DNA of 64,000 nt from Candidatus Gorgyraea atricola (GCA_030765235.1 JAVCCW010000010.1:30907-94906); one strand, 5' to 3'; numbered from the stretch's first letter, positions 15,557 through 36,312 are shown. Notes: generated by a model not told the origin, from the letters alone. Program-made: numbers and translations.

Positions 15557-15572
15557 TATGGCTGTCCTTGCA

Positions 15573-16031
15573 TTAGTCTACGCCAGCATAAAAAGAAAAT
15601 CGCGAATGTCCAAGATAGCTTATTATAGCACACATAATCATCACAATCGCCGCAGCGATTCTTGGAGAGATATATAGAATTTCCACAAAAAATGGCAAAA
15701 GGATCAGGCTCGATAAAAAAGTGACAACATACGTCATGCAAAATTTAAAAAACTCCGTTATTATCCTCCAACCTCTCACTCTTGACTTGAAGGTTATATA
15801 TTTATGAAAAATAAAGGCGTTGATAATCGCTATGAATGCCCCTAAAATCATGGCAGACATATAAGAAGTGTGTCTAACTTTAAATATATGTAAAAAAACC
15901 GCATAGAGAATCAGAAAAACTCCATATCCAAAAATTGTATTCCAAATCCCTACGATTATAAACTTTGTCTGTACTTTGTATTTACTTATGATAGTTTTTA
16001 TAATATTTGTCACGCTCTTAATGTTCATCAA
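15573..16031 (-). CDS. GtrA-family small membrane protein (polyprenol-P-sugar flippase-like)
   Basis: 152 aa; four TM helices; overlaps downstream GT2 gene by 4 nt (operon); GtrA-like size and topology. Confidence 0.6.
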   Translation of the reverse strand: MMNIKSVTNIIKTIISKYKVQTKFIIVGIWNTIFGYGVFLILYAVFLHIFKVRHTSYMSAMILGAFIAIINAFIFHKYITFKSRVRGWRIITEFFKFCMTYVVTFLSSLILLPFFVEILYISPRIAAAIVMIMCAIISYLGHSRFSFYAGVD

Positions 16032-18315: not shown

Positions 18316-19386
18316 CTAATCAATAAAATCCTCACTTGTAAATACTTCAGTATAAGGTACTGGGAGCGGTTTACCGTAGATTTTTTTCACCGCATAGTCA
18401 TTAATAAATTTTCTGTCCTCTGCAATAAGACAAGTGTCAGCATATTTTCCAAAATATTTAACCTTCATGCCTCTTTCAATAATGTCTTTTAATGGTTCTT
18501 CAAAAAAGTTTCCAAGAGAAACATGAATATATGGACAGGGCATTACGTCGCCATACTTTGTAATAGACACCATTCTTTTAACTGATATGCATCCTAAATT
18601 AAGGCCATACGATGGGGTTAAATGTGTAAACACATTATACTTTTTCTCGAGTTCTCCCATATAATCCATGTCATCCTTATCGACAAGAACATCAAAATTC
18701 CCTTCCCATGATCCAACAGGCTTTGCATATGTTACAAATACTCCTACTCCTTTTCCGTTCAGAAATTCCAAAAATTCAATGAACTCTTGTGATCTAACCC
18801 TTTGCTTTGTAACTACAGTTTGTATGATAATATTTAATCCTGCGCCCAAGGCCGCATCAACAGCTCTTACGGCTCTTTCTTGCGAACCCGCCTTGCGTCT
18901 AAATGCATCATGTTCCGCCGCCGACATGCTATCAATGCTCAACTGAATTTTGTCAACGCCTATACTTTTTAGATGTTTTGCTTTTTCTGAATCCAAAAAC
19001 CAGCCATTGGTATCCGAAACTATCCAAAATTTCTGCGGGTCGATAGCCTTAACTATATCATCAAAATCCGGAAATACTAATGGTTCGCCGCCTGTAATTA
19101 CAATTTGCGCAAGCCCCATTTCGTCCGCTTGCCGTGAAAGTTCCCTTACATCATCAGGCGTAAAAAACCTTCCTTCCTTTTTCCCCTGAAATCTTTTCGT
19201 TGAACAGTGTATGCAAGAAAAATTACACCTATAATCGTATTGGAATTGAATTATAGCTATGCTCTCTCCATTTTTAACCTTTTCATCAAATTTCATGATT
19301 TTTTCATAGACATACGGTTTTTCTTCTTTTAGTGAGGCCCTTTTTTTTATTTCATTTAGTTTTAATTGTCCTTGTTGGCCTGGCAT
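18316..19386 (-). CDS. Radical SAM protein (SPASM/twitch-like C-terminal cysteines)
   Basis: 356 aa; CNFSCIHC (CX3CX2C); GGEP; later Cys pairs (CISVKR...MPCPYIH). Confidence 0.75.
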   Translation of the reverse strand: MPGQQGQLKLNEIKKRASLKEEKPYVYEKIMKFDEKVKNGESIAIIQFQYDYRCNFSCIHCSTKRFQGKKEGRFFTPDDVRELSRQADEMGLAQIVITGGEPLVFPDFDDIVKAIDPQKFWIVSDTNGWFLDSEKAKHLKSIGVDKIQLSIDSMSAAEHDAFRRKAGSQERAVRAVDAALGAGLNIIIQTVVTKQRVRSQEFIEFLEFLNGKGVGVFVTYAKPVGSWEGNFDVLVDKDDMDYMGELEKKYNVFTHLTPSYGLNLGCISVKRMVSITKYGDVMPCPYIHVSLGNFFEEPLKDIIERGMKVKYFGKYADTCLIAEDRKFINDYAVKKIYGKPLPVPYTEVFTSEDFID

Positions 19387-19412: not shown

Positions 19413-21047
19413 CTATATAGGGATATTAAACATATCTGCATATTTGCGCCAGAAAGGGCTTTCTTTTACGATTATCTTTGCAGTATCCATATATTGTTGT
19501 GCTTTATTAAAATTGCCGAGTTTTTCATAGCATTTTGCGGCACAGTAATATGCAATGGCATGGTCATTTTTTGCTCTTATTGCATTCTCAAACCCGCGCA
19601 GCGCCATTTCGTAATTGCCCAAACGAAAGTCGCTGTTTTCTACAAGGTTAAGCTCTATATTTAAGATATATGCCTTCTCCTGTATATATTCAGCGGTAAA
19701 ATTCTCTGTTTCGACAACCGCTTTTTTATAATGGCAGTCAATGTAACCGCCTTTGATGTAATTCTTTTTAAGGCATATATCAAACATTTCACTCCCTACA
19801 AGAGGAGTTGCAACCGTTATTCTAAACCAGTTTGCATTAATAGTTTTTAAAAATGCCCTTGTATCCTCAATATCCTGCTTTGTTTCGCCGGGGAGTCCTA
19901 TTAATATGTTCACATCCATATATATTCCCAATTCACGGCAATCGTCAGCCACAGGCTTTACCATTGAAAGGTCAAGGGGCTTGTGCATTATTTCCTTTAA
20001 AACCCTGCTGCTCCCCGATTCAATCGCCAGAACAAGCTGATCAATCCCTGCGCTTTTTAAAGCCTCAAGCATCTTTCTGTCAAGCTCATACAAAGGCAGT
20101 CCATTTTGAAAAACAGCAGTTAATCGCAATTCCTTTACTATATCAATGATCTCAAAGGCCCTCTGTTTTTTCGCAATGAAATGATCGTCCTGAAAAATAA
20201 TTACTTCTGCCCCGTATTGGTCTCTAAGGCGCTTAAAATCCTCTCTGATCCTCTTGATGCTATAATAGCGCATCCTTCTTCCATGGACCGAGTGTGATGC
20301 GCAAAAACAACAATGGTATGGGCACCCCCTGGACGTCATTACATGAAAGTTTTGTTTTTTCTTGGTGACAGCCGAATAGGCCTCTATTGCAGGGTTTAAT
20401 CCATATTCGTCTATCTCGCAAATATCATAATCATAAAAAGGTATTTCATCAAGGTCTTCGATAAAATCATGCAGGAACGTCTGTCCTCTTTCAACTTTTC
20501 TCCGCGTAATCCAGGAAGGATTTTCTTCAAAGTACGACACTTTATCATCGGCTTGCACAAGGCCTAAAAGAGGTTTTTCGCCTTCACCATAACATAGAGC
20601 GTCAAATCCTGCGCTAGTTTTAAATATATCTTTATATATATTTGTTGGAATGCCGCCGCCTGCTATAATGATGGCATCGGGAAATATGTTACGACAACAT
20701 TCTGCTATATCCAGCATATTTTGATACGAAGGCGTGAACAGCGAAGATATCCCGACTATAGTTGGCGCATAATCCAAAGTTGAAAGAGATTGCTGAAAAA
20801 AATCTACAAAAGAATGATACTCAAAACTTTCTAACTTATTTAAAGTAGTAGCAAAATCTAAAAGCTTAGTTTCTGCTGCGGCATGTTTTTTTAAGCATGA
20901 GCTCATAGACATTATACCTAAAGGCATATCGGTGAGCACACTTGCAAAATCTCCATTTTTCTTTTTTACTATTCTTGCATTATAATCAGGTTTGACAAAA
21001 TCGACATACATAATAGGCGGGGGTACTATAAATAAGACCTTGTCCAT
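19413..21047 (-). CDS. Cobalamin-binding radical SAM enzyme (class B rSAM, methyltransferase-type) with C-terminal TPR
   Basis: 544 aa; N-terminal Rossmann B12-binding-like region, rSAM cluster CPYHCCFC, C-terminal TPR-like segment. Confidence 0.7.
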   Translation of the reverse strand: MDKVLFIVPPPIMYVDFVKPDYNARIVKKKNGDFASVLTDMPLGIMSMSSCLKKHAAAETKLLDFATTLNKLESFEYHSFVDFFQQSLSTLDYAPTIVGISSLFTPSYQNMLDIAECCRNIFPDAIIIAGGGIPTNIYKDIFKTSAGFDALCYGEGEKPLLGLVQADDKVSYFEENPSWITRRKVERGQTFLHDFIEDLDEIPFYDYDICEIDEYGLNPAIEAYSAVTKKKQNFHVMTSRGCPYHCCFCASHSVHGRRMRYYSIKRIREDFKRLRDQYGAEVIIFQDDHFIAKKQRAFEIIDIVKELRLTAVFQNGLPLYELDRKMLEALKSAGIDQLVLAIESGSSRVLKEIMHKPLDLSMVKPVADDCRELGIYMDVNILIGLPGETKQDIEDTRAFLKTINANWFRITVATPLVGSEMFDICLKKNYIKGGYIDCHYKKAVVETENFTAEYIQEKAYILNIELNLVENSDFRLGNYEMALRGFENAIRAKNDHAIAYYCAAKCYEKLGNFNKAQQYMDTAKIIVKESPFWRKYADMFNIPI

Positions 21048-23104: not shown

Positions 23105-24616
23105 TTAATCTAACCAGTGAGTAACTAAGGTCTTGCGATGTTTATTCTTTGCTATTTCTTTATCAGTATAATATGAATCCTTTGCATGATGCGTTGATGA
23201 AATCTCTTCGATTATTGCGCCGGCCCTGCTGCCAAAACTATGTTTTTTCTTTCTCTCCACAGTAACTAAGCTGCCGGCCTTATATTCCGTCTCGACCCCA
23301 TCTATCGTAAGCAGGATATCTCCATATAAAACCTGGAAGGTCTCCTCTTTTATCTTGTGGTATTGCTCAGGGTGCTTCTGCCCGGGAAGCATCACTATCA
23401 GTTTCTTGCAATATTCACGGTTTACAAAATTAATCATCGTACAGCCCTGCTCTTCGACCTTATCTACCCCATAGTGATGCGATATCTCAAGATCTAATTT
23501 GCCTGGAACCAACACATTACTCTTCTTTAAAATAGCCTTTACCTTCTGAACCACACTATAGACCCTTTCTCTGTTATCCACCTGCCTTAGATTAGCTAAA
23601 GGTATCGGCTTATTTACATCCATGTCTGAAGTGGCATAAAAATCTGTGTATTTGGACATATCATTTGCCGTGATCTGACCCTCTGCCGTAGGTATAGCCA
23701 GAAAGGTATTAGATAGCTCAATCATCTCGCCCTTTTTTATTTTTCTACTGGCAAAGACACCTCTTTTTAAAGACTGTAGAGCCTTTGTCTCTTTCTCGGT
23801 AAATCCTGACCTCTTCATAGCGGTTCCGCACATCTGTAAGGCCTCAAGCGCTGACTCCAACCATAGCCTGACTTGTCCGGGAACAACTGAATAACCATTA
23901 AGGCCAAACTGTCCTGTCCTTATCCCTGCATGCTTTTCAAATACCCTTGCGCCTTTTCCTATCGCGATCTTAATGGAAACAAAATTATCAGGCTCCTCAT
24001 GAGCTGAATAACCAATATCTACCTGAGGGTACCTTGCCTTCAGTAAGTCTATCTGATTTAATTGCAGGCCTTTTTTAGGAGTAGGGTATTCAGCTACGCA
24101 ATGCATGAGCGCAAAGGCCTTCTCCCTGTGTTCAAGAAAACTAACAACCTTATCTATCTCTTCCAGAGGCAAGCCAGCAGTGGAGACAATAATGGGTTTA
24201 TTGGTCTTCACAACCCTTTCCAGCAAAGGCCAATCAGTAGCAGAGCAGCTGCCGATCTTAATGATGTCAAAATCCTGTCTTTCTATTAGATCAACTGAGG
24301 CCTCATCAAATGGCGTACAAACCGAGACAAACCCCAGGTTATCGATCTCGTCCTTCAATACCTTAAACTGATTTTCATCAAGCCGAGTTTCTAAAAAACG
24401 TTTAACGTATTTAAATTCAAACTTCTTCTTAAAATCCGGGTGAATAAAGGTATCTAAATCCCTGTATTGCAGCTTAAACCCAAAATTAAAGTCGAACCCC
24501 TTGCAGATCTTATGTATCTCCCTGATGATCTTTAAGCCGTGCTCCACGTTTCCCATGTGGTTATTAGCCATCTCGAAGATAAACAGATTGTGAAATATGC
24601 CCTTGTCCAATCCCAT
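23105..24616 (-). CDS. NeuB-like ulosonic-acid synthase (TIM barrel + SAF domain) fused to C-terminal cupin domain
   Basis: 503 aa; N-terminal IFEMANNHMGN (NeuB/SpsE-type), SAF block (GVFASRKIKKGEMI), extra about 130 aa C-terminal beta-rich His-containing cupin-like domain. Confidence 0.6.
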   Translation of the reverse strand: MGLDKGIFHNLFIFEMANNHMGNVEHGLKIIREIHKICKGFDFNFGFKLQYRDLDTFIHPDFKKKFEFKYVKRFLETRLDENQFKVLKDEIDNLGFVSVCTPFDEASVDLIERQDFDIIKIGSCSATDWPLLERVVKTNKPIIVSTAGLPLEEIDKVVSFLEHREKAFALMHCVAEYPTPKKGLQLNQIDLLKARYPQVDIGYSAHEEPDNFVSIKIAIGKGARVFEKHAGIRTGQFGLNGYSVVPGQVRLWLESALEALQMCGTAMKRSGFTEKETKALQSLKRGVFASRKIKKGEMIELSNTFLAIPTAEGQITANDMSKYTDFYATSDMDVNKPIPLANLRQVDNRERVYSVVQKVKAILKKSNVLVPGKLDLEISHHYGVDKVEEQGCTMINFVNREYCKKLIVMLPGQKHPEQYHKIKEETFQVLYGDILLTIDGVETEYKAGSLVTVERKKKHSFGSRAGAIIEEISSTHHAKDSYYTDKEIAKNKHRKTLVTHWLD

Positions 24617-24626
24617 AATATATCCC

Positions 24627-26426
24627 CTATATTTTAGAAATACTCATATTTTCTGCCAGCTCTTCTCTTGACAAAAACGGAAACATGTCTTCCAGAGGCC
24701 TTGACTCAAAGGACCCGTCCGCTCTTTTGTAAGAGGCTGCCTTTGGATTCAATCCTTGATGAGGTGATATATTCAATTCACACAAGATAGGCCCTGGCTC
24801 TGATAAAACCCTACTTACCTTGCTTTCGATCTCTTTATTTGTTAAAATTTTTTCATAACCTAATCCATAGGCAATAGCTACCTTTTTAAAATCTGGATTG
24901 CTTATACCTGACCGTTCGTCTGCCCCCACATAATGACTATTAAAAAAGGTATCTTGTGTCAACCTGATAGATGTATAGCCGGCATTGTTAATGATAAATA
25001 TCTTTATCGGAAGATTATGATGCCTTATAAGCTGCAGTTCCTGGATATTCATCTGCATGCTCCCGTCTCCTGTAATGCAAATAGTCCTTTTACGATCATT
25101 AGCGATACAGGCCCCGATACTGGCAGGTAATCCCCACCCCATTGCCCCATAGCCATTATTTGTAAAGGCCCTCTGCTGCGGCTTCACCTTAAATGCCTGG
25201 TAAAGACATAATGCGGCCATGCCATTACCCGTGACTACCACATCCTGCTCTGTTAATAAGTCTGATAATTTGTCATAAAAAATATATGTATCAACATGAG
25301 CCTCATCTTCAAAAAATTCATTAACGATAGAGGGATAGCGTTTTTTCCAATTTTTACATGCGTCAAGCCACCCCGCAGGGGCACGAAGATCTATTTCTTT
25401 AAGCTGATTTAAAAATTCTTCTAAAAAATCTTTCGCATCGGCTTGAATACGAACATCAGGAGAGAGTGTTGACTTTTGTAATTCTCGTTCATCTACATCC
25501 ACTATAATCTTTTTGGCATTCGGGGCAAATGCCTTATAATTATATCCAACAATCTTTATGTTCATTCGAGATCCTATGCTTAAGAGGCAATCAGAATTCT
25601 GTATCGCAAAATTCGCCCTTCTCTGGCCTATAATACCTGCCTTTCCTATAAGTAATGGGTGCGCGTCTGGAATCAAATCCATGCCGTTAAATGAAAGCAC
25701 TGCGGGAATCTGAATCCTTTCAAGGATTTGCTTCAACAAGTCTTCTGCCCTGGCTATTCGTATGCCATATCCACATAATATCACCGGCCTCTTGGCCCTC
25801 TTTAGCATCTCCATGACTTTACTTACGTGGAGTCTTTTTTTAAGCCGCGGCAACGAGTCCTTTGGCCTAAAGGAATGAAGATTTTCTATATCAATAAAGC
25901 TGCCCTGGACATCAAGAGGTATATTGATCCATACTGGCCCAGGCCTCCCTGTAGTGGCTTTATAAAAAGCTAACTCTAATTCGTATTTAATCATCTTGGG
26001 GTCTAAAATTGTTTTGGCGTATTTTGTAATAGGCTTGATCGTCTCGATAATATTGATCTCCTGCTCGCCTATCTGTCTTATTTTCGAATAATCCGCTATA
26101 AGCTCCCTTTTAACCTGACCGGAAATAACCATCATCGGTACAGAATCAACCCATGCGCTCGCAACCCCTGAAATCGCATTTGTACTTCCGGGACCTGTAG
26201 TGACAAGACATGATGATATATGATTTTTTAACCTCGCATACCCTTCTGCGCAATATCCAACAGCCTGCTCATTATAATTACAAAAATACTTTATATTTTT
26301 ATTTCGCCCCACTGAGTCCACAAGGTGGATGATCCCCCCTCCAGCGATCATGAATATATCCATGATCCCTTTTTGGACTAAAAAATCTATTACATAATCT
26401 GAAAGCTTTATCATCTTATCCTTCAA
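24627..26426 (-). CDS. Thiamine-diphosphate-dependent enzyme of the acetolactate-synthase-large-subunit family (YerE-like branched-sugar synthase candidate)
   Basis: 599 aa; three-domain TPP fold; TPP-binding GDGSMQMNIQEL motif; located beside rfbF/rfbG/rfbH. Confidence 0.8.
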   Translation of the reverse strand: MKDKMIKLSDYVIDFLVQKGIMDIFMIAGGGIIHLVDSVGRNKNIKYFCNYNEQAVGYCAEGYARLKNHISSCLVTTGPGSTNAISGVASAWVDSVPMMVISGQVKRELIADYSKIRQIGEQEINIIETIKPITKYAKTILDPKMIKYELELAFYKATTGRPGPVWINIPLDVQGSFIDIENLHSFRPKDSLPRLKKRLHVSKVMEMLKRAKRPVILCGYGIRIARAEDLLKQILERIQIPAVLSFNGMDLIPDAHPLLIGKAGIIGQRRANFAIQNSDCLLSIGSRMNIKIVGYNYKAFAPNAKKIIVDVDERELQKSTLSPDVRIQADAKDFLEEFLNQLKEIDLRAPAGWLDACKNWKKRYPSIVNEFFEDEAHVDTYIFYDKLSDLLTEQDVVVTGNGMAALCLYQAFKVKPQQRAFTNNGYGAMGWGLPASIGACIANDRKRTICITGDGSMQMNIQELQLIRHHNLPIKIFIINNAGYTSIRLTQDTFFNSHYVGADERSGISNPDFKKVAIAYGLGYEKILTNKEIESKVSRVLSEPGPILCELNISPHQGLNPKAASYKRADGSFESRPLEDMFPFLSREELAENMSISKI

Positions 26427-27412
26427 AAAATACCCTTATACCAGTTTATGGTTTTCTTCAAGCCTTCTTCCAAGCTATGCTTTGGTTTCCAGCCAAGGGC
26501 CTTTCTTGCCTTCCATGATGAAAGATGCTGATGTCTAATCTCATGCCTTACCTTGCTTAGAATTTTATAAGATGGCCTTATGCCGGCTAGTTGATAAATC
26601 TTTTTTACCATCTTTATGACCGATACGGGTTTCTCATTGCTGAAGTTAAATGCCTCTCCTTCTAATTTCAATCTTTGCAAATTTTCAGCAAGCAGAATAT
26701 ATCCATTCATAATATCCTCGACATAAACATAATCACGCGTAAATCTTCCATCGCTGCGAATAAGTAATTTCCTGTTCTGAAGCGCTGATCTGATTGCATC
26801 AGGGGCAATCCTTGAAAAATGGAAATCCCCAGGGCCAAAGACATTGCCGCATCTGGTTATGCCTACAGGTAAATTATAGGTATTATAATAAGTATGCGCT
26901 AATAAATCCGCGCAGCTTTTAGAAGCGTCATATGGATGATTACCAGATAAAGGAGCGTCTTCCTTATATGGAAGTTTATTAGTCTCTCCGTAGGCCTTAT
27001 CGCTTGAGGCTATTACAATGGATTCTATGAATTTTTTATTTCTTGACGCCTCTAAAATATTCCATGTGCCTTCAATGTTTGATTTAAAAGTCTTAATGGG
27101 GTTCTTGTTAGCCTCGAGAACTATCGCCTCAGCAGCCAGATGAAAAATAGTCTGCGGCTTAAATCTTTCAATGACATTTTTAACTAATTCTAAATTTATA
27201 ATATCTCCCCTGACGCAGGTTATATCCTTTCTTAAGCCGTTAAGCATAGAAACTGGGCGATTTTTTATCTTGTCGATGCCTGTTATTCTAGCGCCATAGC
27301 CCAGTAAAACCTTGGCAAGCCAAGAACCCAGAAAACCTTCATGGCCTGTTATCAAAACCTTTCTATCTTTCCAAAAGACACCTTTTCTATTGCTCATTCC
27401 CAGACCTTCCAA
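26423..27412 (-). CDS. rfbG: CDP-glucose 4,6-dehydratase
   Basis: 329 aa; FWKDRKVLITGHEGFLGSWL N-terminus characteristic of RfbG/DdhB; SDR YxxxK; 4-nt overlap with rfbF (operon). Confidence 0.8.
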   Translation of the reverse strand: MEGLGMSNRKGVFWKDRKVLITGHEGFLGSWLAKVLLGYGARITGIDKIKNRPVSMLNGLRKDITCVRGDIINLELVKNVIERFKPQTIFHLAAEAIVLEANKNPIKTFKSNIEGTWNILEASRNKKFIESIVIASSDKAYGETNKLPYKEDAPLSGNHPYDASKSCADLLAHTYYNTYNLPVGITRCGNVFGPGDFHFSRIAPDAIRSALQNRKLLIRSDGRFTRDYVYVEDIMNGYILLAENLQRLKLEGEAFNFSNEKPVSVIKMVKKIYQLAGIRPSYKILSKVRHEIRHQHLSSWKARKALGWKPKHSLEEGLKKTINWYKGIF

Positions 27413-28182
27413 GGAGCCCTATTTTCCTTCCACATCTGATTTAAGTTACCATATTCCCTGATAGTGTCAACACAGTACCAAAATCCTTTATGTTCATATA
27501 CGCCCATCTGTTTATCTTTTACCATGTTAGGCAGGGTCTCGCCCTCCAAAACTAAATCTTCTCCTGGCCTGAAATATTTATGAATGACCTTTTTATTAAA
27601 GACCATAAATCCGCCATTAAACAACCCCGTGCTTACATTAGGTTTCTCATTAAAGGAAGATATCATATTGCCGGTGGCCTGTATTTCACCAAAACGGCTA
27701 GCAGGATAAACTCCTGTTATTGTACCCAATAAACTGGATTTTTTATGAGTCTCTATCAACTCCTTTATATCAATATCAGCGACACCATCCGCGTAAGTCA
27801 CGCCAAAGATATTACTGTGCTCTAAATACTTACGCACATTCCAAATCCTTGCTCCAGTTTGAGAATTCTCCCCTGTTTCCACCATAGTAACTTTCCAATC
27901 TAAATCTTCATTACGATGATGACGATAGACTGCCAAACCTTTTTTATTTAAATTTACGGTTACATCTGAAACCTTGGCCATGTAATTTAAGAAAAATTCC
28001 TTTATCAGCCATCCTTTATAACCAAGGCATAGGACAAAATCTTTTATGCCATAATGAGCGTACATCTTCATTATATGCCAGATCATAGGCCTATCGCCTA
28101 TAGGAAGCATGGCCTTAGGCAAAACCTCGGAAACATCCCTGATCCTTGTTCCTCTACCACCGCATAGGATTACTAACTTCAT
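27394..28182 (-). CDS. rfbF: Glucose-1-phosphate cytidylyltransferase
   Basis: 262 aa; MKLVILCGGRGTRI...LPKAMLPIGDRPMIWHIMKMY, near-canonical RfbF/DdhA. Confidence 0.85.
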   Translation of the reverse strand: MKLVILCGGRGTRIRDVSEVLPKAMLPIGDRPMIWHIMKMYAHYGIKDFVLCLGYKGWLIKEFFLNYMAKVSDVTVNLNKKGLAVYRHHRNEDLDWKVTMVETGENSQTGARIWNVRKYLEHSNIFGVTYADGVADIDIKELIETHKKSSLLGTITGVYPASRFGEIQATGNMISSFNEKPNVSTGLFNGGFMVFNKKVIHKYFRPGEDLVLEGETLPNMVKDKQMGVYEHKGFWYCVDTIREYGNLNQMWKENRAPWKVWE

Positions 28183-28263: not shown

Positions 28264-29367
28264 TCAGATAAAATTAACATGCATCGGTTCTTTGCCTTTT
28301 ACATCTTCTAATGCGGCCTCTCCGCGCTTCAGATCCAATAGAAAGTCATTAACGCTATGTTGAAGGCATAAAGTGCCGCACATGGTCCTGGCGTCAAACT
28401 CCTCAGACGCGATTAGATCTATAACATCCCAGTAGCGCTTGCTTTCCCAGATCTTTTTAAACGGTGTATCAACTATATTTCCTATATGATATTTTTTATA
28501 CCTTCTGTTAAATAACATCCCGCATGGCGCCACAAGGCCTGAACCTGAAAACTGCATGATAAAAGGCGGGCCATAGCAGCGGGAATATCTGCGCTTACCC
28601 TTGCTTAAAATCTTAGACCATTTTACCCTTACTATGCACTGCTTGTCTGAATACGATTCTGCCTGCTTTAAGAGATCCTTGAGCGGCTCATATTTGGAAT
28701 AATCAATACCTAAAGACCCCCTCTCGTCATCACTGCAGTGTTTGATAATAACATAGTCTACTCCGAGCTCCTTGCCAAGCCTTACCACTGGAATGATCTG
28801 GTCTTTAAAATCAGGCATTAGAACCATCTGCAGGCCAAGCGTAACATTCAGGTTTTTCTGTCTTTTTATCTTCACGCATTTTTTTATAATATCACTTACT
28901 GCGTAAAAATGTTCTCTCCTGCACCCCATAATACGCGCATATCTTTCAGGTTCTCCAGCTGAAATATTGAACCTCAAATACGTAAGCGCTGATAAAATTT
29001 CCTCTAAGCGCTCTTCTTGCAAAAGATAACCGTTTGTAGCCAGGGCCATGTCTAATCCATTGGCCTTACCCCTTATTATGGCATCGTATAAATGAGAAGA
29101 GCATGTGCTTTCTCCGTCGCTTACAAGGCTTATTGCCTTTACGCCGATCTCAGCCGCATCATCCAGGAATCTGAAGATAACATCCCTGGTCATCCTTTTT
29201 TCATCATTGGCCTGAAGCTGGCCATAGCAATACACGCATCTATACGTGCATTTCCTGGTAAGCGCGCAGTCTATGGTTATGGGCGCAATCCGTTCCCCCT
29301 GCAGCCAGGCCTCAACCCTATCTCTGTGCCAGTGTAATTTATGACCATCCAGTAGCAGCTCTGTCAT
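28264..29367 (-). CDS. Radical SAM protein, paralog A (shared family with 32154-33218)
   Basis: 367 aa; CTYRCVYC (CX3CX2C); N-terminal HKLHWHRDRVEAWLQGERIAPI block and C-terminal ...HVNFI both shared with the 354-aa paralog. Confidence 0.75.
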   Translation of the reverse strand: MTELLLDGHKLHWHRDRVEAWLQGERIAPITIDCALTRKCTYRCVYCYGQLQANDEKRMTRDVIFRFLDDAAEIGVKAISLVSDGESTCSSHLYDAIIRGKANGLDMALATNGYLLQEERLEEILSALTYLRFNISAGEPERYARIMGCRREHFYAVSDIIKKCVKIKRQKNLNVTLGLQMVLMPDFKDQIIPVVRLGKELGVDYVIIKHCSDDERGSLGIDYSKYEPLKDLLKQAESYSDKQCIVRVKWSKILSKGKRRYSRCYGPPFIMQFSGSGLVAPCGMLFNRRYKKYHIGNIVDTPFKKIWESKRYWDVIDLIASEEFDARTMCGTLCLQHSVNDFLLDLKRGEAALEDVKGKEPMHVNFI

Positions 29368-30137
29368 TAAGATTTTTTATAACGCTGCGCTGATGCGCAA
29401 CCCTGAGTAAACTTGTATCTTTTGCTTTTCTCTTTCTTTCCAAAGTATATGTCATACACTAATTTCAGGTATTCCTTTATAACCTGCAGAGAATTTGAGA
29501 ATGTAGTTGCCTTTGATTTGCCAATCTTTCTTGATCCTAACCTATAGGGAACCTCTGCAAATAGATATCCTCTCTTTGCGAGCCTTATTAAAATATCCGC
29601 CTGAAAAAAGAAACTCGAGCTTCTATAATCCAAATCACTCAAGATCGATCTTCTGTAAAGAACAGTCCCGTGGGGATAGTTAAAGGACGTGCCGAATGTG
29701 CTATTAAGAATTTTCAATAAGAAAAAAGATAGTATATTTCTAAATAATGTCCTGTCGCGTTTATTATAGACAAAGGGGATTACCATATCGACTTCATCCA
29801 AGAGTTTTAAATAGCGAAATATCTCATAAGGGTCATTTTCATCGTCTCCGGGCAGCATGCAAACTATCTCACCCCTGGCATTCAGGATGCCATCCCAAAA
29901 TGACACGCCTATGCCCTGCGGAGTTTCGTGATTAATCAGGCGGATTCTATTGCCTTCTTTGGACATTAATTCTTTCACAAGCTCCAATGTCTTATCGCTC
30001 GAGCCATCATTAATAATAACAATCTCTCCATCTACTTTAAAGGCCTCAAAGGCCTTTAAAGTATTATTGATAGCGGATAAAATGTTCTTTTGTTCGTTTA
30101 ACGCTGGCATTATTATACTTAAAAATACAGGGCTCAC
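29367..30137 (-). CDS. GT2 glycosyltransferase (Dpm1-like, soluble)
   Basis: 256 aa; LSIIMPALNEQ N-terminus, DGSSD, DxD-type region (MLPGDDENDP). Confidence 0.75.
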   Translation of the reverse strand: MSPVFLSIIMPALNEQKNILSAINNTLKAFEAFKVDGEIVIINDGSSDKTLELVKELMSKEGNRIRLINHETPQGIGVSFWDGILNARGEIVCMLPGDDENDPYEIFRYLKLLDEVDMVIPFVYNKRDRTLFRNILSFFLLKILNSTFGTSFNYPHGTVLYRRSILSDLDYRSSSFFFQADILIRLAKRGYLFAEVPYRLGSRKIGKSKATTFSNSLQVIKEYLKLVYDIYFGKKEKSKRYKFTQGCASAQRYKKS

Positions 30138-31180
30138 TCTTTCACCTTTTTGCTTATAACATCGACTATATCTTTATAATCAGGGTAAAATTCTTTTTCC
30201 AGCGCAGAAGAGGCAGGTGTATGCGATTCAGGCAAACCAATTCTTGCTGCAGGAGACTTTAGATATTTGAATGCCTTTTCAGAGACCCTTGAAACTATCT
30301 CTGCTGCCACCCCGCAATTACTCCAACCTGTATCTGCCACAACTAATCTGCCTGTCTTTTTAACGGATTCTAAGATCAGATCTTCGTCTAATGGTGTTAA
30401 TGTGCGCAGGTCTATCACCTCGACGCTCACCCCATGTTTTTGTAAAACCTCTTGTGCCTTCAGAGATTCAAACATCATATAAGAAATACCCACAAGAGTC
30501 ACATCTCTGCCGATTCTCCGAACAACACCTTTGCCGAACGGTACAGTATACATATCTTCAGGGACATACCCTACGTGTTCATATAACCATCTATGTTCTA
30601 TGAAAATAACAGGGGTATTTTCCTTTACGCTCGAAATCAAAAGGCCTTTAACATCATAAGGAGTGGCTGGCATTGCGACCCTCAAGCCAGGCACATGCAT
30701 AAAAAGCGCCTGCAGGCTTTGTGAATGCTGGCTGGCAGAACCCCAGCCCCTGCCTATTATCGACCTTATGGTCAAAGGGATTTTGACTGTCCCGCCAAAC
30801 ATATAGCTCCATTTTGCAGCATGATTAATTATTTGATCCATTGACATGGGTAAAAAATCCATTCGCATATGAATAAAAACTGGCCTCATGCCAGTAATTG
30901 CAGCGCCTATGGCAATGCCTGTGGTGGCATTTTCTGCAATAGGTATATCAATAATTCTGGATCGTCCAAACCTTTTATGTAGATCTTTGGTAGTGCCAAA
31001 TACCCCACCTGCATCATCTATGCCTTCGCCGATTAAAAAGACTCTGCTATCTTCCTCTAATATCTGAGTAAAGGCCTCTTTTATGGCCTCTCTATAAGTA
31101 AGGCCTCTTAAAGGCTTGCCACTCTCCTTGCGAGCATTTTCAAATTCTGTCCTGTCAGGATAAACCTTTGTCCACGGCAT
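30134..31180 (-). CDS. TPP-dependent 2-oxoacid dehydrogenase E1 component beta subunit (transketolase-like Pyr + C-terminal domains)
   Basis: 348 aa; E1-beta layout (GEGIDDAGGVFGTT ... transketolase C-terminal domain); 4-nt overlap with GT2 gene and adjacent to E1 alpha. Confidence 0.8.
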   Translation of the reverse strand: MPWTKVYPDRTEFENARKESGKPLRGLTYREAIKEAFTQILEEDSRVFLIGEGIDDAGGVFGTTKDLHKRFGRSRIIDIPIAENATTGIAIGAAITGMRPVFIHMRMDFLPMSMDQIINHAAKWSYMFGGTVKIPLTIRSIIGRGWGSASQHSQSLQALFMHVPGLRVAMPATPYDVKGLLISSVKENTPVIFIEHRWLYEHVGYVPEDMYTVPFGKGVVRRIGRDVTLVGISYMMFESLKAQEVLQKHGVSVEVIDLRTLTPLDEDLILESVKKTGRLVVADTGWSNCGVAAEIVSRVSEKAFKYLKSPAARIGLPESHTPASSALEKEFYPDYKDIVDVISKKVKE

Positions 31181-31182
31181 AG

Positions 31183-32157
31183 TTAATACACGTCCTCTAA
31201 CAATCCTTCTTTTTTCGGAAACGATGAAGACTTGGCAAAGGATACTGCTTTTTCGATTTCTCTTCCCAAGCTTTCCTTTATATCCCCTATATCCCGTATT
31301 GATAAAATTCCTTCTTTCAAAATAGATTTTCTAAACCTCTCTATCGGGCATTTTTTAAGCCACCTATCCAGTTCCCCTCTTGGCCTGCACCCTGTTTCAA
31401 AATCACAATCCGGCCCCACATGGCCTTTCCATCTATAGGTCCTGCATTCAAGTAAGCTCGGGCCTTTGTTGTTTTTCGCCCTTTCCACAGCAACCCTGGC
31501 CGCTTCAAAAACCTCTCCTACATCATTTCCATCTATCTTTATGCCTGGGATTCCATAAGGTAGTCCTTTTTTATATATATTATCCAGGGCCTGCCTCGCA
31601 GATGCTGGCGAATTAGTCGCATAAAAATTATTTTCGCAGACAAAGACAACAGGCAGTTTTTTTAAGGCTGCGAAATTCAAGCTTTCGTTAAATGTGCCTT
31701 CATCTGTTGCGCCATCACCAAAAAATACCACGCTGATTCTTTTCTGCTCCTGCATTACTGAACCCATGGCCGCGCCAACTGCAATAGGTATGCCTCCGCC
31801 CACTATTGCAGAGCTGCCCATAAACCCATTCTTAGTGTCCGCTAAGTGCATAGAGCCGCCCTTACCTTTTGAACAACCTGTAACCCTTCCGTACAGCTCA
31901 GCCATAAACTCATTTAAATCCCCACCATTAGCAATATAATGACCATGACCTCTGTGGTTACTAAACACATAATCTGTTTTTTTGAGGTTTGCGCACACGC
32001 CAGCAGCTATTGCCTCCTGTCCTATGCATAGATGCACAGGACACTTTATCTCCTGATCAGGATAGAGCTCGATTATCTTTTCTTCAACCATCCTGATCTT
32101 CAGCATGGTTTCAAAAAGCCAGATAAATGTCTTTCTGTCAATCCCTTGCATTTTCAT
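31183..32157 (-). CDS. TPP-dependent 2-oxoacid dehydrogenase E1 component alpha subunit
   Basis: 324 aa; TPP-binding GDGATDEGTFNESLNFAA motif of E1-alpha; paired with beta subunit. Confidence 0.8.
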   Translation of the reverse strand: MKMQGIDRKTFIWLFETMLKIRMVEEKIIELYPDQEIKCPVHLCIGQEAIAAGVCANLKKTDYVFSNHRGHGHYIANGGDLNEFMAELYGRVTGCSKGKGGSMHLADTKNGFMGSSAIVGGGIPIAVGAAMGSVMQEQKRISVVFFGDGATDEGTFNESLNFAALKKLPVVFVCENNFYATNSPASARQALDNIYKKGLPYGIPGIKIDGNDVGEVFEAARVAVERAKNNKGPSLLECRTYRWKGHVGPDCDFETGCRPRGELDRWLKKCPIERFRKSILKEGILSIRDIGDIKESLGREIEKAVSFAKSSSFPKKEGLLEDVY

Positions 32158-33218
32158 ATAAAATTGACATGTGCCAGGGGCCTTTTAAGCTCCCATAAGT
32201 ACCTATTTACGTCATCGAGCCTACAAATCTCGCGGCAATTTCGCGAATCGAGTCTCGTTGCAGCCATATTCAAAATCTTTCTACGCGCCTCACCTTTAAT
32301 GATGTCAGAAAATTCACCCTTATATATATTCCCATACACAAATCTCTTTTCACCTAAATACGCGCTGCAAGCAGAGACATTACCCTCTGCGTCTATATAT
32401 GCCCAGAAAGGTAGCCCCGGGCAATGTTTATAGACCCTGTTCTTTTTTAGTTTTTCCATTGTCTGGGATCTGAATATTATCTTGAATTCCTCTGTCGATA
32501 TCCTTTTAAGCCTATCCTCCAGATATAAAAATTTAGCATAGTCAAAATCCTTGTCTATATTACTACGGCTCATTGGATGTTTTGAAAATGGCTTTATTAT
32601 TAGATAATCCACGCCTGTCTTTTTAATGAGTTTGGCTAACTTAATGACCTCTCCCTTGTTTTCTGGAATCAATAGCATCTGGACGCCTATCGTGCAATCT
32701 AATCTAAATTTACGTTTGTATCTTACAGCCCTATCCAAATTAGAGAGGACTTTTTCAAAATCTCCCTTTAAGCATCTATGAATCTTTTTGTAGGTAACTG
32801 CGGTAGATGCATTAAAACTTACTCGTATCCACGAGAGACTCTTAAGGCACTTTTTTATTATTTCATCATTAAGAAATACCCCATTTGTAGTAACAGCTGC
32901 ATCAATCCCTGAGCTTTTTGTAAAATTTATTATACGGGCTATATCCCCATGAAGAAGGGGCTCGCCCTCACCTGCGTACATTATGCTTTTTACTCCACAT
33001 TTAGCCGCGCTTTTTACAGCCCCTAGTAAAATCTTTGTATCCAGGAATTTCGGTTTATATCCCATATAATCTAATCCGCAGAATATGCATCGATGATTGC
33101 AGGCGCCAGAAGGCGCGATCTCCATGTAAATAGGCGCTATCAACTCGCCCTTCTGCCATCGATTTACCCTATCAACATGATATATTAATTTATGATTATC
33201 TATTCTCAGTTCATCCAT
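32154..33218 (-). CDS. Radical SAM protein, paralog B
   Basis: 354 aa; CNHRCIFC; N-terminal HKLIYHVDRVNRWQKGELIAPI and C-terminal ...AHVNFI shared with paralog A. Confidence 0.75.
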   Translation of the reverse strand: MDELRIDNHKLIYHVDRVNRWQKGELIAPIYMEIAPSGACNHRCIFCGLDYMGYKPKFLDTKILLGAVKSAAKCGVKSIMYAGEGEPLLHGDIARIINFTKSSGIDAAVTTNGVFLNDEIIKKCLKSLSWIRVSFNASTAVTYKKIHRCLKGDFEKVLSNLDRAVRYKRKFRLDCTIGVQMLLIPENKGEVIKLAKLIKKTGVDYLIIKPFSKHPMSRSNIDKDFDYAKFLYLEDRLKRISTEEFKIIFRSQTMEKLKKNRVYKHCPGLPFWAYIDAEGNVSACSAYLGEKRFVYGNIYKGEFSDIIKGEARRKILNMAATRLDSRNCREICRLDDVNRYLWELKRPLAHVNFI

Positions 33219-33231
33219 AACAATCTCTTCT

Positions 33232-34161
33232 CTATTTTAATAATTTTGCAATGTTTTTATATATGGACTCTGGTTTTATATTGTGCATACAGCTTTTACT
33301 GTATTTACAAACAGTGTTAAAACACGGCATGCATTCTAAGCTCTTATCCGGTTTTATTACCATACCTCCATTGCAAAGAAACACCTCTTTCTCTGAGGTT
33401 GGGCCAAACATTGCAATGATGCCTTTCTTCAGCGCTATTGCAAGATGCAATCCCAGCGAATCGTTTGTAATAATAAGCCTGCAGCTATTAAGCCAGTCAA
33501 TGTAACCATTTATATCACTAAGCGACTGCTGGTATGAAATTGAATATCTTCCATCTATTAATTTCTCTAATCTTCTCCAGTTTTTTTTGGGCCATGTCTT
33601 GTTTGGCCATCGCATCCCAACCTTGGTATTAAACCCTATATCAAATCTCTGCTGAGTCTTTGGTTTATAGCCCAGTATATAGCCTTGTTCTGACCATCTT
33701 GCCCCTACCATTTCATAAAGCATCTGGGTCCAGTTTTTTTTCATCTTCCGCCGCAGCACAGGATCTTCGGAATTTGCCACTGCTTCATATGAATGCTCGT
33801 ACGCCTCTGCTGTTCCTTTTTTTACATCAAATCTGAAACCATATCTCTTCCACGCGTTTATAGAATCCGTAAGCGCGCATACACCCGGAATCTTTTCCAG
33901 ATTTATAATCATGTCGAACTCTTGGGACTTAAGCTGCAGGGAAGTGGTTAAGTCATACACCAGCAGCTTATTTATATAAGGATTGCCTGTCAAAAGGGGG
34001 CTCGCCTCTTTAGTGGTAAGCCATGTTACATCATCCTTCTTGAACAGATGCAATATTGCCGTGGTCCTAAAGACATCGCCAAGGCTGACATTTTCAGTAG
34101 AGACCTTTTTATCAATAGTCTCTGTAAACCCCATCTTAACGATAAGTATCTTTCTTTTCAT
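33232..34161 (-). CDS. GT9-family glycosyltransferase (heptosyltransferase-like); start refined to MKRKILIV
   Basis: ORF track start at 34176 lies inside the palindromic repeat; internal ATG at 34161 gives MKRKILIVKMGF...; GT9 features (LGDVFRTTAIL..., C-terminal GPTS/ FGPTSEKE). Confidence 0.6.
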   Translation of the reverse strand: MKRKILIVKMGFTETIDKKVSTENVSLGDVFRTTAILHLFKKDDVTWLTTKEASPLLTGNPYINKLLVYDLTTSLQLKSQEFDMIINLEKIPGVCALTDSINAWKRYGFRFDVKKGTAEAYEHSYEAVANSEDPVLRRKMKKNWTQMLYEMVGARWSEQGYILGYKPKTQQRFDIGFNTKVGMRWPNKTWPKKNWRRLEKLIDGRYSISYQQSLSDINGYIDWLNSCRLIITNDSLGLHLAIALKKGIIAMFGPTSEKEVFLCNGGMVIKPDKSLECMPCFNTVCKYSKSCMHNIKPESIYKNIAKLLK

Positions 34162-34171
34162 AGGAGTTAGA

Positions 34172-34226
34172 CCCATCCGACCGCGTAGGTCAGATTTAAA
34201 TCTGACCTACGCGGTCGGATGGGTAG
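34172..34226. repeat. 55-bp perfect palindromic (REP/MITE-like) element, copy 1, intergenic
   Basis: cccatccgaccgcgtaggtcagatttaaatctgacctacgcggtcggatggg; homologous (about 85%) to palindrome at 46129-46184. Confidence 0.7.
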
Positions 34227-34228
34227 TC

Positions 34229-35968
34229 TTACAGTCTCTTTAGAAGCACGAGGCTGAATTCATTGCTGGTAAAGGGCCAGGGTCCGAATTGTTTCTCAAT
34301 CACATAATGGTCTGCTAGATAGCGCATGATGTCCTGCGCATAATCCATGCCGAACCGCGCAGCCCCATATTCTGATGTCAGGCGCCTCAAGATAACAACA
34401 TATTTTACATCTTTATCCTCGAGTTCCTTGGATAGATTTTTTTCGCAGTCTGGCGTCAATGAAATCAAAAGTGGCAAAAACGCATACTGGTGCAGCGGGC
34501 TATCCCTTTCAGAGAGAAAATTTATGGTCAGGCCCTCTGGAAATACTGCAAGCTTATCAGACGGGTCAGTGTTTTTACGCAAATACTCCACTAATTGTTT
34601 GCACCTATAATAACCAGGATGCACCAGCATTGCGCCCCTTGGAGAAGATATCTTCATTGTGCGATTTTTATACCTATAAAGCGAGACAGGTACATGGGCC
34701 ATGATAAAAGATATTGATAGAACTGTAAAAGCAAATCTATAAAAAGCACGCGTGTCTTTCCTCTGCGATATACGTGGAACTATCCTCAGGAAAAAGATGT
34801 AATAACATAGCATGCCAGGGGCAAGCAGATAAAAACCACTATGTTCTGCCCTGACATTGAAAAACATGCGCGCCAATAAAAGAAGTGAAAAAATAGAAAA
34901 AACCGCCAAAAACAGGTCTTGCCTGTCTTTCTTTGCGAAATATCTTCGACAACTGACAATAAACACTAATATGCAGACAATAGGTACGCATCGATATTGC
35001 GCATTATAATGAAAGAATTCTTTTTGAAACAAAACAGTAGTAGCTGCGACAACTAATGTCACTCCAATGCCAATGAGGACCTTCTTTGTTGTTGAGATTT
35101 TTTTTACCAGAGAAATCAACCGGCCTGAGGCAAAGAATACAGCGCTCATAGCTACATAATACAAGCTTGTTTTTAGTATGGCTGCGATGTTTCTCCAAAA
35201 ATCAATAGTGCCAAGGGTCTGTCCAGTAAAAGGCCCTTTTATATCTAAGTTTATTAAAAGGGCTTCTTTGCTTGCTACAGTACTGCCTGTAATAATGCCA
35301 AAGAAACCGTAGACGATAGCTGCGGCAAGGGCTGGAAAAAGGCAATAGGCCGCTACCCTTTTAAGCCTATCCTGTTTCTGGCTATCAAGGATTATGCCAA
35401 TAAATATTGAGACCATAAGCACGATGCCTATCTCTACTCGAGTAATCAGCAAAAGCGCTATGAATAAACTGGAGAAGTATGTGCGGCTGCGATAGTAGAA
35501 AAATAAGGCTAAAAACGCTAACGTGATAGCGTGGATCGAGGCATAGCTATAGGGGATGATGTAATTGAAGATGCCTGCCTCATAGTGCTGGCTGAACGCG
35601 AATACAAAAAGAAATGTAAGCACGCATAGCGTTGAAAAAAGCGCGTTTAAAAATATGCGGGATGTCTTGTATAGGAGCACGCACATGAGAGTAGCTGTAA
35701 GTGCACCGCTTATTATAAAAGCGCGCATATGAACGCCAAAGATCATGCACAGAAGACTATTAAAGTATGGTGAAAAAGGCCCGAATTCATAAAATATATC
35801 CCTGTACGGCAATTTGCCAGAAAGGATACTTAAAGGCAAATAAAGCTCCCTACCTGTATCTATCAACAAACTCCCCCACCTGAGCCAGGATACACTAAAT
35901 AAATAAAAACCAGCTCCCATTATAATAAGAGCTGGTATCCATCCTCTCTTCCACAACCGCTTAACCAT
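34229..35968 (-). CDS. Polytopic membrane protein with C-terminal soluble domain (GT-C-like glycosyltransferase candidate); start refined to MVKRLWKRGW
   Basis: ORF track N-terminus (36187) reads through the MITE copy; internal ATG at 35968 begins the first TM helix; about 13 TM helices then about 170 aa soluble tail. Confidence 0.45.
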   Translation of the reverse strand: MVKRLWKRGWIPALIIMGAGFYLFSVSWLRWGSLLIDTGRELYLPLSILSGKLPYRDIFYEFGPFSPYFNSLLCMIFGVHMRAFIISGALTATLMCVLLYKTSRIFLNALFSTLCVLTFLFVFAFSQHYEAGIFNYIIPYSYASIHAITLAFLALFFYYRSRTYFSSLFIALLLITRVEIGIVLMVSIFIGIILDSQKQDRLKRVAAYCLFPALAAAIVYGFFGIITGSTVASKEALLINLDIKGPFTGQTLGTIDFWRNIAAILKTSLYYVAMSAVFFASGRLISLVKKISTTKKVLIGIGVTLVVAATTVLFQKEFFHYNAQYRCVPIVCILVFIVSCRRYFAKKDRQDLFLAVFSIFSLLLLARMFFNVRAEHSGFYLLAPGMLCYYIFFLRIVPRISQRKDTRAFYRFAFTVLSISFIMAHVPVSLYRYKNRTMKISSPRGAMLVHPGYYRCKQLVEYLRKNTDPSDKLAVFPEGLTINFLSERDSPLHQYAFLPLLISLTPDCEKNLSKELEDKDVKYVVILRRLTSEYGAARFGMDYAQDIMRYLADHYVIEKQFGPWPFTSNEFSLVLLKRL

Positions 35969-36044
35969 ATCGCCTATTCTACTATATAACCAATATAGGT
36001 GCAAATATATTATTACATTATTTAAATAATCGCGTTGCTTTTTT

Positions 36045-36312
36045 AAGCTAAATGGAAGGCCTGTTCGCTCAGGTGAAAATTTCCCTCCTCGCTTCGCCCC
36101 GCCCTTTCTACGAAAGGCCGGGGCTTCGCTCGGAAACAGGTCGTCTTTTATTCCGCATTTTGGCGGGACTGAAAAAACTTCACCCACACCATAGGTGTGG
36201 GTGTCGAACAGTTTTCAGCCTTTTGGGCTCATATAATGTGCCAAAGAAACCGCCAAAATGCTACATAAAAGACTAAATTTTCAAATTCGCGCCCAGACCT
36301 TCCATTTAGCTT
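36045..36312 (+). mobile_element. MITE-like element, about 268 bp, family copy 1 (TIR aagctaaatggaaggcctg...; internal hairpins)
   Basis: 23-bp imperfect terminal inverted repeats; shares more than 85% identity with 48841-49096 and, in reverse complement, 50026-50293; contains perfect hairpin cacccacaccataggtgtgggtg; no credible ORF. Confidence 0.6.

Follow-up and report, generated by a model that had tools for sequence, protein, structure and literature searches.

Few radical S-adenosylmethionine (SAM) enzymes act on sugars, and each of those characterised (DesII, BtrN, AprD4, BlsE, viperin) has brought new chemistry. DesII, the TDP-4-amino-4,6-dideoxy-D-glucose deaminase/dehydrogenase (PDB 8hzv, 8hzy), acts on a nucleotide sugar and yields a keto-sugar. 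BtrN and anSME act on an aminocyclitol and on protein Cys/Ser, respectively; both perform alcohol-to-carbonyl chemistry, both carry a Cys-rich C-terminal domain after the radical SAM core, and the twitch domain of BtrN has a four-Cys, single-cluster arrangement. The full SPASM type has seven Cys (CX9-15GX4C ... CX2CX5CX3C ... C) and two auxiliary [4Fe-4S] clusters. Enzymes dependent on thiamine pyrophosphate (TPP) add two-carbon branches to keto-sugars in the pathways of yersiniose (YerE) and, as enzymes of the E1-alpha/beta type, of avilamycin (AviB1/AviB2) and aldgamycin (AlmDI/DII); the keto-sugars of these pathways come from NAD- or pyridoxamine phosphate-dependent dehydratases, and to our knowledge no radical SAM partner has been described for them. 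BlsE, the cytosylglucuronate decarboxylase (PDB 7vob), is a radical SAM enzyme acting on a sugar nucleoside (PMC3715490). Here we describe a five-gene cassette in a 64,000-nucleotide stretch of DNA of Candidatus Gorgyraea atricola (GCA_030765235.1 JAVCCW010000010.1:30907-94906, hereafter the window, with positions counted from its first letter), in which two radical SAM genes, rSAM-A and rSAM-B, enclose a two-subunit TPP enzyme and a glycosyltransferase.

All five genes lie on the minus strand, in the order rSAM-A (32154-33218, 354 aa), E1-alpha (31183-32157, 324 aa; PF00676, E1_dh, 266 bits), E1-beta (30134-31180, 348 aa; PF02779 and PF02780, Transket_pyr and Transketolase_C), a family 2 glycosyltransferase (GT2; 29367-30137, 256 aa; PF00535, Glycos_transf_2, 82.8 bits), which resembles polyprenyl-phosphate sugar transferases, and rSAM-B (28264-29367, 367 aa). 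The TPP subunits are of the pyruvate dehydrogenase (PDH) E1-alpha and E1-beta type. Stop and start codons overlap at three junctions (4, 4 and 1 bp), and the other gaps, counted from a GT9-like gene upstream of rSAM-A to rSAM-B, measure 2-13 bp; with such tight spacing the genes of the operon are almost certainly co-translated. An earlier note, made from the sequence alone, had recognised two open reading frames (ORFs) of 367 and 354 aa around GT2 and E1 genes and had taken them for paralogues of moderate identity in one operon. The ORFs proved exact, Pfam agrees on the genes between them, and the two proteins align end to end with 32% identity (BLASTP, E 1e-55), far beyond chance.

The shared features that the same note had listed are readily found in both proteins. 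The N-terminal block occupies aa 7-29 in each (33132-33200 in rSAM-A, 29281-29349 in rSAM-B) and reads D-x-HKL-xx-H-xx-R-V-xx-W-xx-G-xx-I-x-P in rSAM-A; common to both is HKLxxHxDRV..W..GE.IAPI. It precedes the CX3CX2C motif of the radical SAM [4Fe-4S] site, with C40, C44 and C47 at the same positions in both (33078-33101 and 29227-29250) and invariant in all alignments. The auxiliary-cluster regions (32223-32423 with C266, C284, C328 and C332; 28366-28578 with C264, C282, C330 and C334) follow a common CX17C ... CX3C spacing, and both proteins end in HVNFI (32157-32171, directly before the stop codon, and 28267-28281). These elements hold far beyond the window. In the N-terminal block, D7, H9, K10, H14, W21 and P29 are conserved in at least 97% of 46 rSAM-A sequences, and D7, K10, H14, R17, G24 and P29 in at least 97% of 84 rSAM-B sequences. 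The four auxiliary Cys are present without exception (46/46 and 84/84), H-x-N-F-[ILV] forms the extreme C-terminus of all 46 rSAM-A sequences, and H-x-[NS]-F-[IV] ends 83 of 83 rSAM-B sequences, 82 of them with N. As only four auxiliary Cys are conserved, one twitch-type cluster would fit both proteins rather than the seven-Cys SPASM arrangement. rSAM-B possesses three further invariant Cys (C34, C89 and C211), which rSAM-A lacks in the same sequence sets; in the structure model they are placed at or just past the ends of beta-strands.

Membership in curated families was assessed with Pfam gathering scores and NCBIfam cutoffs, and solved enzymes were compared by PDB sequence and profile searches. 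Both proteins belong to the radical SAM superfamily (PF04055, 68.6 bits for rSAM-A and 62.3 for rSAM-B, cutoff 29.5), and the beta/alpha core is present in both structure models. PF13186 (SPASM) is also above its gathering score (29.9 and 31.1 bits, cutoff 21.5); the full seven-Cys type with two auxiliary clusters is rejected by the four conserved Cys of the 46 and 84 sequences. No NCBIfam model scores above its cutoff for rSAM-A or rSAM-B. The best match, the W-maturase TIGR04317 (tungsten cofactor oxidoreductase), reaches 85 and 93 bits (cutoff 380). Scores are likewise low for the families of DesII (TIGR04426, rSAM-B 30 bits, cutoff 450), BlsE (TIGR04466, rSAM-A 45 bits, cutoff 400), MoaA (TIGR02666/TIGR02668, 39-66 bits, cutoffs 284/325) and prokaryotic viperin (NF038283, 50 and 60 bits, cutoff 180), and the AprD4 family NF033070 (cutoff 500) is not among the best 25 NCBIfam matches of either protein. 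NirJ and PqqE were rejected on score in the Pfam and NCBIfam scans, and Pfam detects in neither rSAM-A nor rSAM-B a B12-binding domain of the kind found at the N-terminus of AprD4-type diol dehydratases. Homologues number in the thousands and are labelled "radical SAM protein" or named generically or wrongly; the low MoaA scores mark the label "GTP 3',8-cyclase" on some of them as over-annotation.

Best PDB sequence matches are confined to the core, namely BlsE for rSAM-A (1.1e-8) and MoaA for rSAM-B (2e-4). The BlsE alignment spans the core residues 31-203 only, and the termini of rSAM-A and rSAM-B are not shared with that enzyme. The family profile finds SkfB and SuiB as its best matches in the PDB, and nothing is nearer than the core matches to BlsE, SkfB or DesII. 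Profile alignments to solved enzymes start at about position 18-36 and end at 200-340, which leaves the N-terminal block and the C-terminal tail without a sequence counterpart in solved radical SAM enzymes. A full-text search of the literature found no paper on the family. One paper on Campylobacter fetus mentions two transketolase subunits together with a number of radical SAM genes in a single region; these radical SAM genes (CFF8240_1582-1612) are possible relatives of the proteins treated here.

Structures were modelled with AlphaFold2 (predicted local distance difference test scores of 94.6 for rSAM-A and 86 for rSAM-B) and compared with PDB folds. DesII is the best fold match of both models (E 1e-15 to 1e-17, template modelling score, TM, 0.63-0.72), with 0.70-0.72 for the rSAM-A model. 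It is followed for both by SuiB, SkfB, anSME, BlsE (TM up to 0.73), viperin and MoaA, the last three being, like DesII, sugar or nucleotide enzymes. DesII differs in that its N-terminus is about 100 residues longer and its sequence possesses neither the HKL..H block nor the HxNFI tail. DesII has no auxiliary cluster as far as we know, whereas rSAM-A and rSAM-B keep four invariant Cys. Their four-Cys, single-cluster arrangement resembles the twitch domain of BtrN. BtrN and anSME are among the fold and profile matches, likewise carry a Cys-rich domain after the core, and perform chemistry of the kind proposed here; the fold similarity to BtrN is low, however (TM 0.27-0.44), with no family-level sequence match. 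In the models the N-terminal block is predicted to form a helix just before beta-1 (residues 15-22 in rSAM-A and 10-22 in rSAM-B), and the last 10-20 residues, from about 346 and 348, respectively, an ordered coil. The C-termini of MoaA and viperin are essential, and by analogy the active site may be covered by the conserved H-x-N-F-I end. The sugar-acting role that the earlier note had proposed fits both the predicted folds, with DesII as closest structure, and the gene context.

To determine the extent of the family, 1.84 billion representatives were searched exhaustively with a profile; 1,496 clusters at 50% identity were recovered (E<=1e-30). About 120 of the best 150 representatives end in H-x-N-F-[IVL]. 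Among 138 of these 150, column conservation at the N-terminus is 0.96 for K10, 0.97 for H14, 0.86 for W21 and 0.99 for P29, and at the C-terminus 1.00 for N338, 0.98 for L341, 0.91 for H350, 0.89 for N352 and 1.00 for F353. Both window proteins carry the complete set of hallmarks (K10/H14/W21/P29, four auxiliary Cys, N338/L341 and the H-x-N-F-[IV] end), as do most of the best 150 representatives. rSAM-A and rSAM-B are thus distinct subfamilies of one large, unnamed, twitch-type clade with a DesII/BlsE-like fold. The N-terminal block, which the earlier note could not place, has indeed no match among curated or solved families, and neither has the C-terminal tail; both are, however, near-invariant across the clade and no private mark of the pair. 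The note had also allowed for shared termini that belong to a large, already named family: the family is large (1,496 clusters) but neither named nor characterised.

Mean identity within the clade is 50% among A-like and 63% among B-like sequences. Between A and B it amounts to 29%, compared with 30% between B and other subfamilies and 37% between A and others. The two are therefore not each other's closest relatives, and these values suggest that two old subfamilies came together in one operon, not that a single duplication was kept in place. Three clade members (P0345, P0347 and P0384) contain inteins, inserted where the radical SAM core begins or immediately ahead of it, with Hint/intein splicing domains and in one case a LAGLIDADG, in another an HNH domain. 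The rSAM/SPASM gene at 18316-19386 was considered as a third paralogue and rejected, since only the core motif is shared.

Distribution of the cassette was surveyed with one genome per species. The search returned 158 relatives of rSAM-B, of which the best 80 were taken; all of these are 69-78% identical and come from more than 15 phyla. Carriers among the best 80 are Omnitrophota, Nitrospirota, Planctomycetota (Scalindua, Anammoxibacter), Elusimicrobiota, Patescibacteria, Desulfobacterota, Dehalococcoidia, Verrucomicrobiota, Negativicutes and Latescibacterota and, within the DPANN archaea, Nanoarchaeia and Woesearchaeota. Neighbourhoods were counted in 58 species-level loci with enough upstream sequence. 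Order and strand are constant across loci (rSAM-A, two TPP subunits, GT2, rSAM-B), and the same order occurs on contigs of Paceibacterota and Auribacterota. An adjacent TPP pair is present in 51/58 loci, GT2 in 47/58 (next to rSAM-B), rSAM-A in 37/58, with orthologues 45-78% identical, and the whole set in 30/58; 16/58 have a GT9-like gene upstream. rSAM-B is the most conserved gene of the cassette. Its very high conservation reflects constraint and not recent transfer, because rSAM-A, E1 and GT2 of the same loci are only about 45-60% identical.

Phage and plasmid collections contain only distant phage matches (23%) and two informative plasmids, both from cultured carriers. Plasmid NZ_CP054615.1 of Azospirillum oryzae KACC 14407 carries rSAM-B (59.6% identity) and E1-alpha/beta (within HUE56_RS00800-00825), an HldE-like gene, an SIS gene, two DegT genes and a NUDIX gene, without rSAM-A and GT2. 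A "hypothetical protein" beside this rSAM-B was considered as the second radical SAM gene and is unrelated. On plasmid pDCAR1 of Solidesulfovibrio carbinolicus the paralogues are more distant and lie among genes for methyltransferases and a Maf/MptE-like protein. The cassette is probably a mobile five-gene unit for a modified sugar of a cell-surface glycan.

The TPP enzyme is of the PDH-E1 type in 32 loci, a split transketolase/DXS-like pair in 11 and a distant version of that pair in 7 more. The split pair (for example in the related loci L005, L007 and L014, and at 7924-9235 of L001) consists of subunits of about 270 and 163 aa, the latter lacking the usual C-terminal domain. The identity of rSAM-B is practically equal between loci of the same TPP type (0.741) and of different types (0.739), and the same is true of rSAM-A (0.547 and 0.538). 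Neither tree has a deep split between E1 and transketolase types, and nearest neighbours are only moderately concordant, from which repeated exchange of the TPP enzyme follows. Being interchangeable, both types are expected to perform one shared reaction, and the swap between E1 and split transketolase is a clean non-orthologous displacement. In the window, E1-alpha has human PDH E1-alpha as its best PDB match (1.6e-55) and stays below the cutoff of TIGR03182 (332 bits, cutoff 394), and E1-beta barely exceeds that of NF006667 (325.9 bits, cutoff 321). No E2 or E3 gene was found among the 42 window ORFs of at least 150 aa that were scanned. The orphan TPP enzyme in a sugar gene cluster is, by gene context, what likens the cassette to the YerE, AviB and AlmD systems. 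A YerE-like enzyme of the acetolactate synthase (ALS) type moreover adjoins the cassette (24627-26426), and an ALS-type enzyme also occurs fused to one member of the clade.

This fusion (P0258, 951 aa) is one of several between clade members and sugar-metabolic domains. A cytidylyltransferase-like domain is joined to the radical SAM protein in P0252, P0268 and P0289, an SIS sugar-phosphate isomerase domain in P0254 and a methyltransferase in P0261, and GT2 is fused to rSAM-B in P0163. Neighbours of the cassette are of the same kind, with an HldE-like nucleotidyltransferase/kinase in 30 loci, a GmhA-like SIS protein in 19, short-chain dehydrogenase/reductase (SDR) dehydratases including the LegB family in 32, DegT aminotransferases in 24 and a B12-binding radical SAM enzyme in 30. 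The closest solved relatives of GT2 are ArnC (residues 10-213, 1.4e-14), GtrB sll0501 and dolichol-phosphate-mannose synthase, and NF007986 gives 59 bits against a cutoff of 529. Related loci contain PMT_2-like or STT3/AglB membrane transferases near the cassette; a PMT_2-like protein lies beside it in 8 loci, and 3' of rSAM-B in four of the five with scorable position. Two families of small membrane proteins (about 173 aa, no Pfam match) are located directly 3' of rSAM-B in 27 and 20 loci, respectively (for example L032 16156-16677 and L054 4200-4724), and are absent from the window; such proteins might serve the cassette as flippase-like or as regulatory partners. With GT-C-like and small membrane proteins as companions, the cassette recalls the Arn (ArnC-ArnT) and GtrA/B/C systems, whose logic, a sugar modified, loaded on polyprenyl phosphate and transferred outside the cell, is also the one proposed here. 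Unlike Arn, it includes no homologues of ArnA, ArnB or ArnD, and its GT2 is shorter and without membrane helices.

These results make it likely that the pair belongs to a sugar or glycan pathway, with an activated sugar as probable substrate. What is observed is the homology, the limits of the family, the conserved cassette, the domain fusions and the gene context; from these we infer a possible substrate, order of steps and chemistry. One of the radical SAM enzymes would take a hydrogen from an activated, i.e. nucleotide- or phosphate-linked, sugar and produce a carbonyl. This could be a radical dehydrogenation like that of BtrN and anSME, or an elimination from a diol or amino-alcohol like that of DesII and AprD4. 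The E1-alpha/beta or split transketolase/DXS-like enzyme would then decarboxylate its donor, most likely pyruvate, and add the two-carbon TPP carbanion to this carbonyl, giving a C-branched or chain-extended sugar comparable to the products of YerE and AviB1/B2. A further radical step would follow, for which rSAM-B is the most likely enzyme in view of its three extra invariant Cys and its occasional fusion to GT2. Finally, GT2 would place the product on polyprenyl phosphate, and a membrane enzyme of the GT-C type would transfer it. That three unrelated TPP types (E1, transketolase/DXS-like and ALS-like) are tied to the clade makes a carbonyl acceptor supplied by the radical SAM enzyme the simplest shared logic. 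The overall route, from radical SAM carbonyl through two-carbon addition to polyprenyl phosphate loading, is a reasonable possibility that falls somewhat short of probable, and its individual chemical steps are less certain still. More tentative is its strongest form, a previously undescribed way of making a sugar by direct coupling of radical SAM to thiamine chemistry. The pyruvate-derived TPP carbanion would attack the carbonyl, or even a substrate radical, made by a twitch-domain radical SAM enzyme, and C34, C89 and C211 of rSAM-B, putatively close to the active site, would then serve a reductive deoxygenation like that of ribonucleotide reductase, an epimerisation or a sulfur-related step.

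Several observations weigh against this route. Not one clade member has a known substrate, product or activity, and no paper was found. The likeness to DesII is moderate (TM about 0.7, 14-17% identity), and the peptide-modifying SkfB, SuiB and anSME fit nearly as well. With 256 aa, GT2 is shorter than ArnC and GtrB (about 320-340 aa) and has no counterpart of their C-terminal membrane helices, so that polyprenyl phosphate is a candidate acceptor and not an established one. Flanking nucleotide-sugar genes vary, from a CDP-glucose pathway in the window to HldE/GmhA-like genes elsewhere, which leaves the sugar acted on unclear. rSAM-B occurs without rSAM-A in about a third of the loci, and without GT2 in some. 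Its identity of 69-78% across domains, far above what is usual in glycan-tailoring enzymes, may point to another kind of role; none of the readings considered here explains this extreme conservation well.

The earlier note had explained the pair by one ancient duplication retained in the operon, with two successive, regiochemically distinct radical steps on a single sugar scaffold. Full-length paralogy within one translationally coupled operon, the A...B arrangement kept in 37 of the 58 loci and the DesII-like fold of both proteins agree with it. It is nevertheless unlikely, because the identities between subfamilies given above do not make A and B sister lineages and the same termini extend over some 1,500 clusters; rSAM-B moreover occurs without rSAM-A in about a third of the loci and on the Azospirillum plasmid, and the TPP enzyme between A and B suggests steps that are not consecutive. 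Two successive steps on one scaffold, taken by themselves, are plausible. Modification at the lipid level, as in Arn, was considered as well: GT2 would load an ordinary sugar on polyprenyl phosphate, and rSAM-B, perhaps also rSAM-A, would modify it before flipping and transfer. The GT2-rSAM-B fusion of P0163, the proximity of GT2 to ArnC, the small conserved membrane proteins directly 3' of rSAM-B (here counted in 24 and 16 loci) and the PMT_2-like/STT3 transferases nearby would all suit such a scheme. Fusions to cytidylyltransferase and SIS domains, in contrast, point to soluble sugar phosphates and nucleotides, no membrane segment is predicted in the models of rSAM-A or rSAM-B, and the Azospirillum locus has rSAM-B without GT2, which together render it distinctly improbable.

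In a third reading the TPP enzyme and the two radical SAM enzymes build a small molecule or cofactor that GT2 merely glycosylates. The conservation of rSAM-B between bacteria and DPANN (69-78%) is indeed like that of core metabolic enzymes, Patescibacteria and DPANN retain the cassette although their genomes are reduced, and inteins, as found in family members, are typical of essential enzymes. The cassette lies, however, always in polysaccharide or glycosylation loci with GT9, GT-C and STT3 genes as partners, and its patchy occurrence within phyla is consistent with an accessory trait; we regard this reading as having little chance of being correct. Least of all do we expect the pair to be protein or peptide maturases, comparable to anSME or the tungsten-enzyme maturase, that act on the TPP enzyme, a surface protein or the precursor of a ribosomally synthesised and post-translationally modified peptide (RiPP). 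The Pfam SPASM matches, TIGR04317 as best partial NCBIfam match and SkfB and SuiB as best PDB profile-sequence matches are what speaks for it. Set against these are NCBIfam scores far under the cutoffs, only four auxiliary Cys, a Pfam scan that detects no RiPP recognition element or PqqD domain, a cassette in which no conserved small ORF is seen, sugar-metabolic fusion partners and neighbours, and DesII as best fold match.

The window contains further genes for surface sugars, all on the minus strand. Upstream of rSAM-A lies the GT9-like (heptosyltransferase-like) glycosyltransferase (33232-34176; PF01075, 52 bits), a frequent partner at this position, preceded by a large polytopic membrane protein of 652 aa (34229-36187) with a weak PMT_2 match only (E 0.008), possibly a GT-C glycosyltransferase that uses a lipid-linked sugar. 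A strong GC-rich hairpin with a T-run (36181-36203) covers the annotated GTG start of this ORF; the true start probably lies further downstream, and the hairpin may be a terminator for the transcript of the upstream gene. A promoter and terminator scan of the operon was uninformative, with counts near shuffle expectation. The terminator scan flagged an inverted repeat with perfect 14-bp arms and a loop of 3 bases in the interior of the GT2 gene (30033-30063, plus strand: TACTTTAAAGGCC TCA GGCCTTTAAAGTA), which is probably coincidental within coding sequence. The minus strand carries nearly all long ORFs of the window, GC skew is negative throughout, and the closest homologues point to a genome of Candidatus Omnitrophota.

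Directly downstream of the cassette follows a CDP-3,6-dideoxyhexose module (16975-18291 and 24627-28182) with a glucose-1-phosphate cytidylyltransferase (27394-28182; TIGR02623, 299 bits, cutoff 300.25), a CDP-glucose 4,6-dehydratase-like SDR protein (26423-27412; 247 bits, cutoff 278), the ALS-like TPP enzyme mentioned above and an RfbH 3-dehydrase (16975-18291; 713 bits, cutoff 423). Module and ALS-like enzyme together resemble a yersiniose-type branched-sugar pathway, and the island would then contain two separate TPP-dependent sugar steps. A protein of 503 aa (23105-24616) combines a NeuB-like domain of the sialic/pseudaminic acid synthase family with a C-terminal cupin; at 135 and 117 bits it is well under the NeuB and PseI cutoffs and may condense phosphoenolpyruvate with a different sugar. 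Further radical SAM genes of the array are a B12-binding one with a TPR tail (19413-21047, no NCBIfam model above cutoff), the unrelated rSAM/SPASM gene at 18316-19386 and one of 287 aa (12442-13305); homologues of the first are found close to the cassette in 30 other loci and those of the last in 13. A complete three-component surface glycosylation set (13307-16960) consists of a GtrB-like GT2 (16028-16960), a GtrA-family flippase-like protein (15573-16031) and a YfhO-like large membrane protein (13307-15556).

While sugar-acting radical SAM enzymes are already known, the libraries and literature searched contain no description of this clade, of its hallmarks or of the way in which it is systematically paired with TPP enzymes. 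About 1,500 clusters at 50% identity share clear hallmarks and have neither a curated name nor a studied member. Gene order and fusions to three kinds of TPP enzyme lead to a testable prediction, a carbonyl made by radical chemistry and then extended by TPP-dependent two-carbon addition, and the cultured carrier Azospirillum oryzae KACC 14407 offers an experimental entry point. The cassette is among the few multi-gene units common at high identity to bacteria of candidate phyla, DPANN archaea and free-living anaerobes, and may for this reason define a surface sugar that these largely uncultivated lineages have in common. If the proposed chemistry is correct, Omnitrophota, Patescibacteria, DPANN archaea, anammox bacteria and Nitrospirota would possess a new branched or chain-extended surface sugar.

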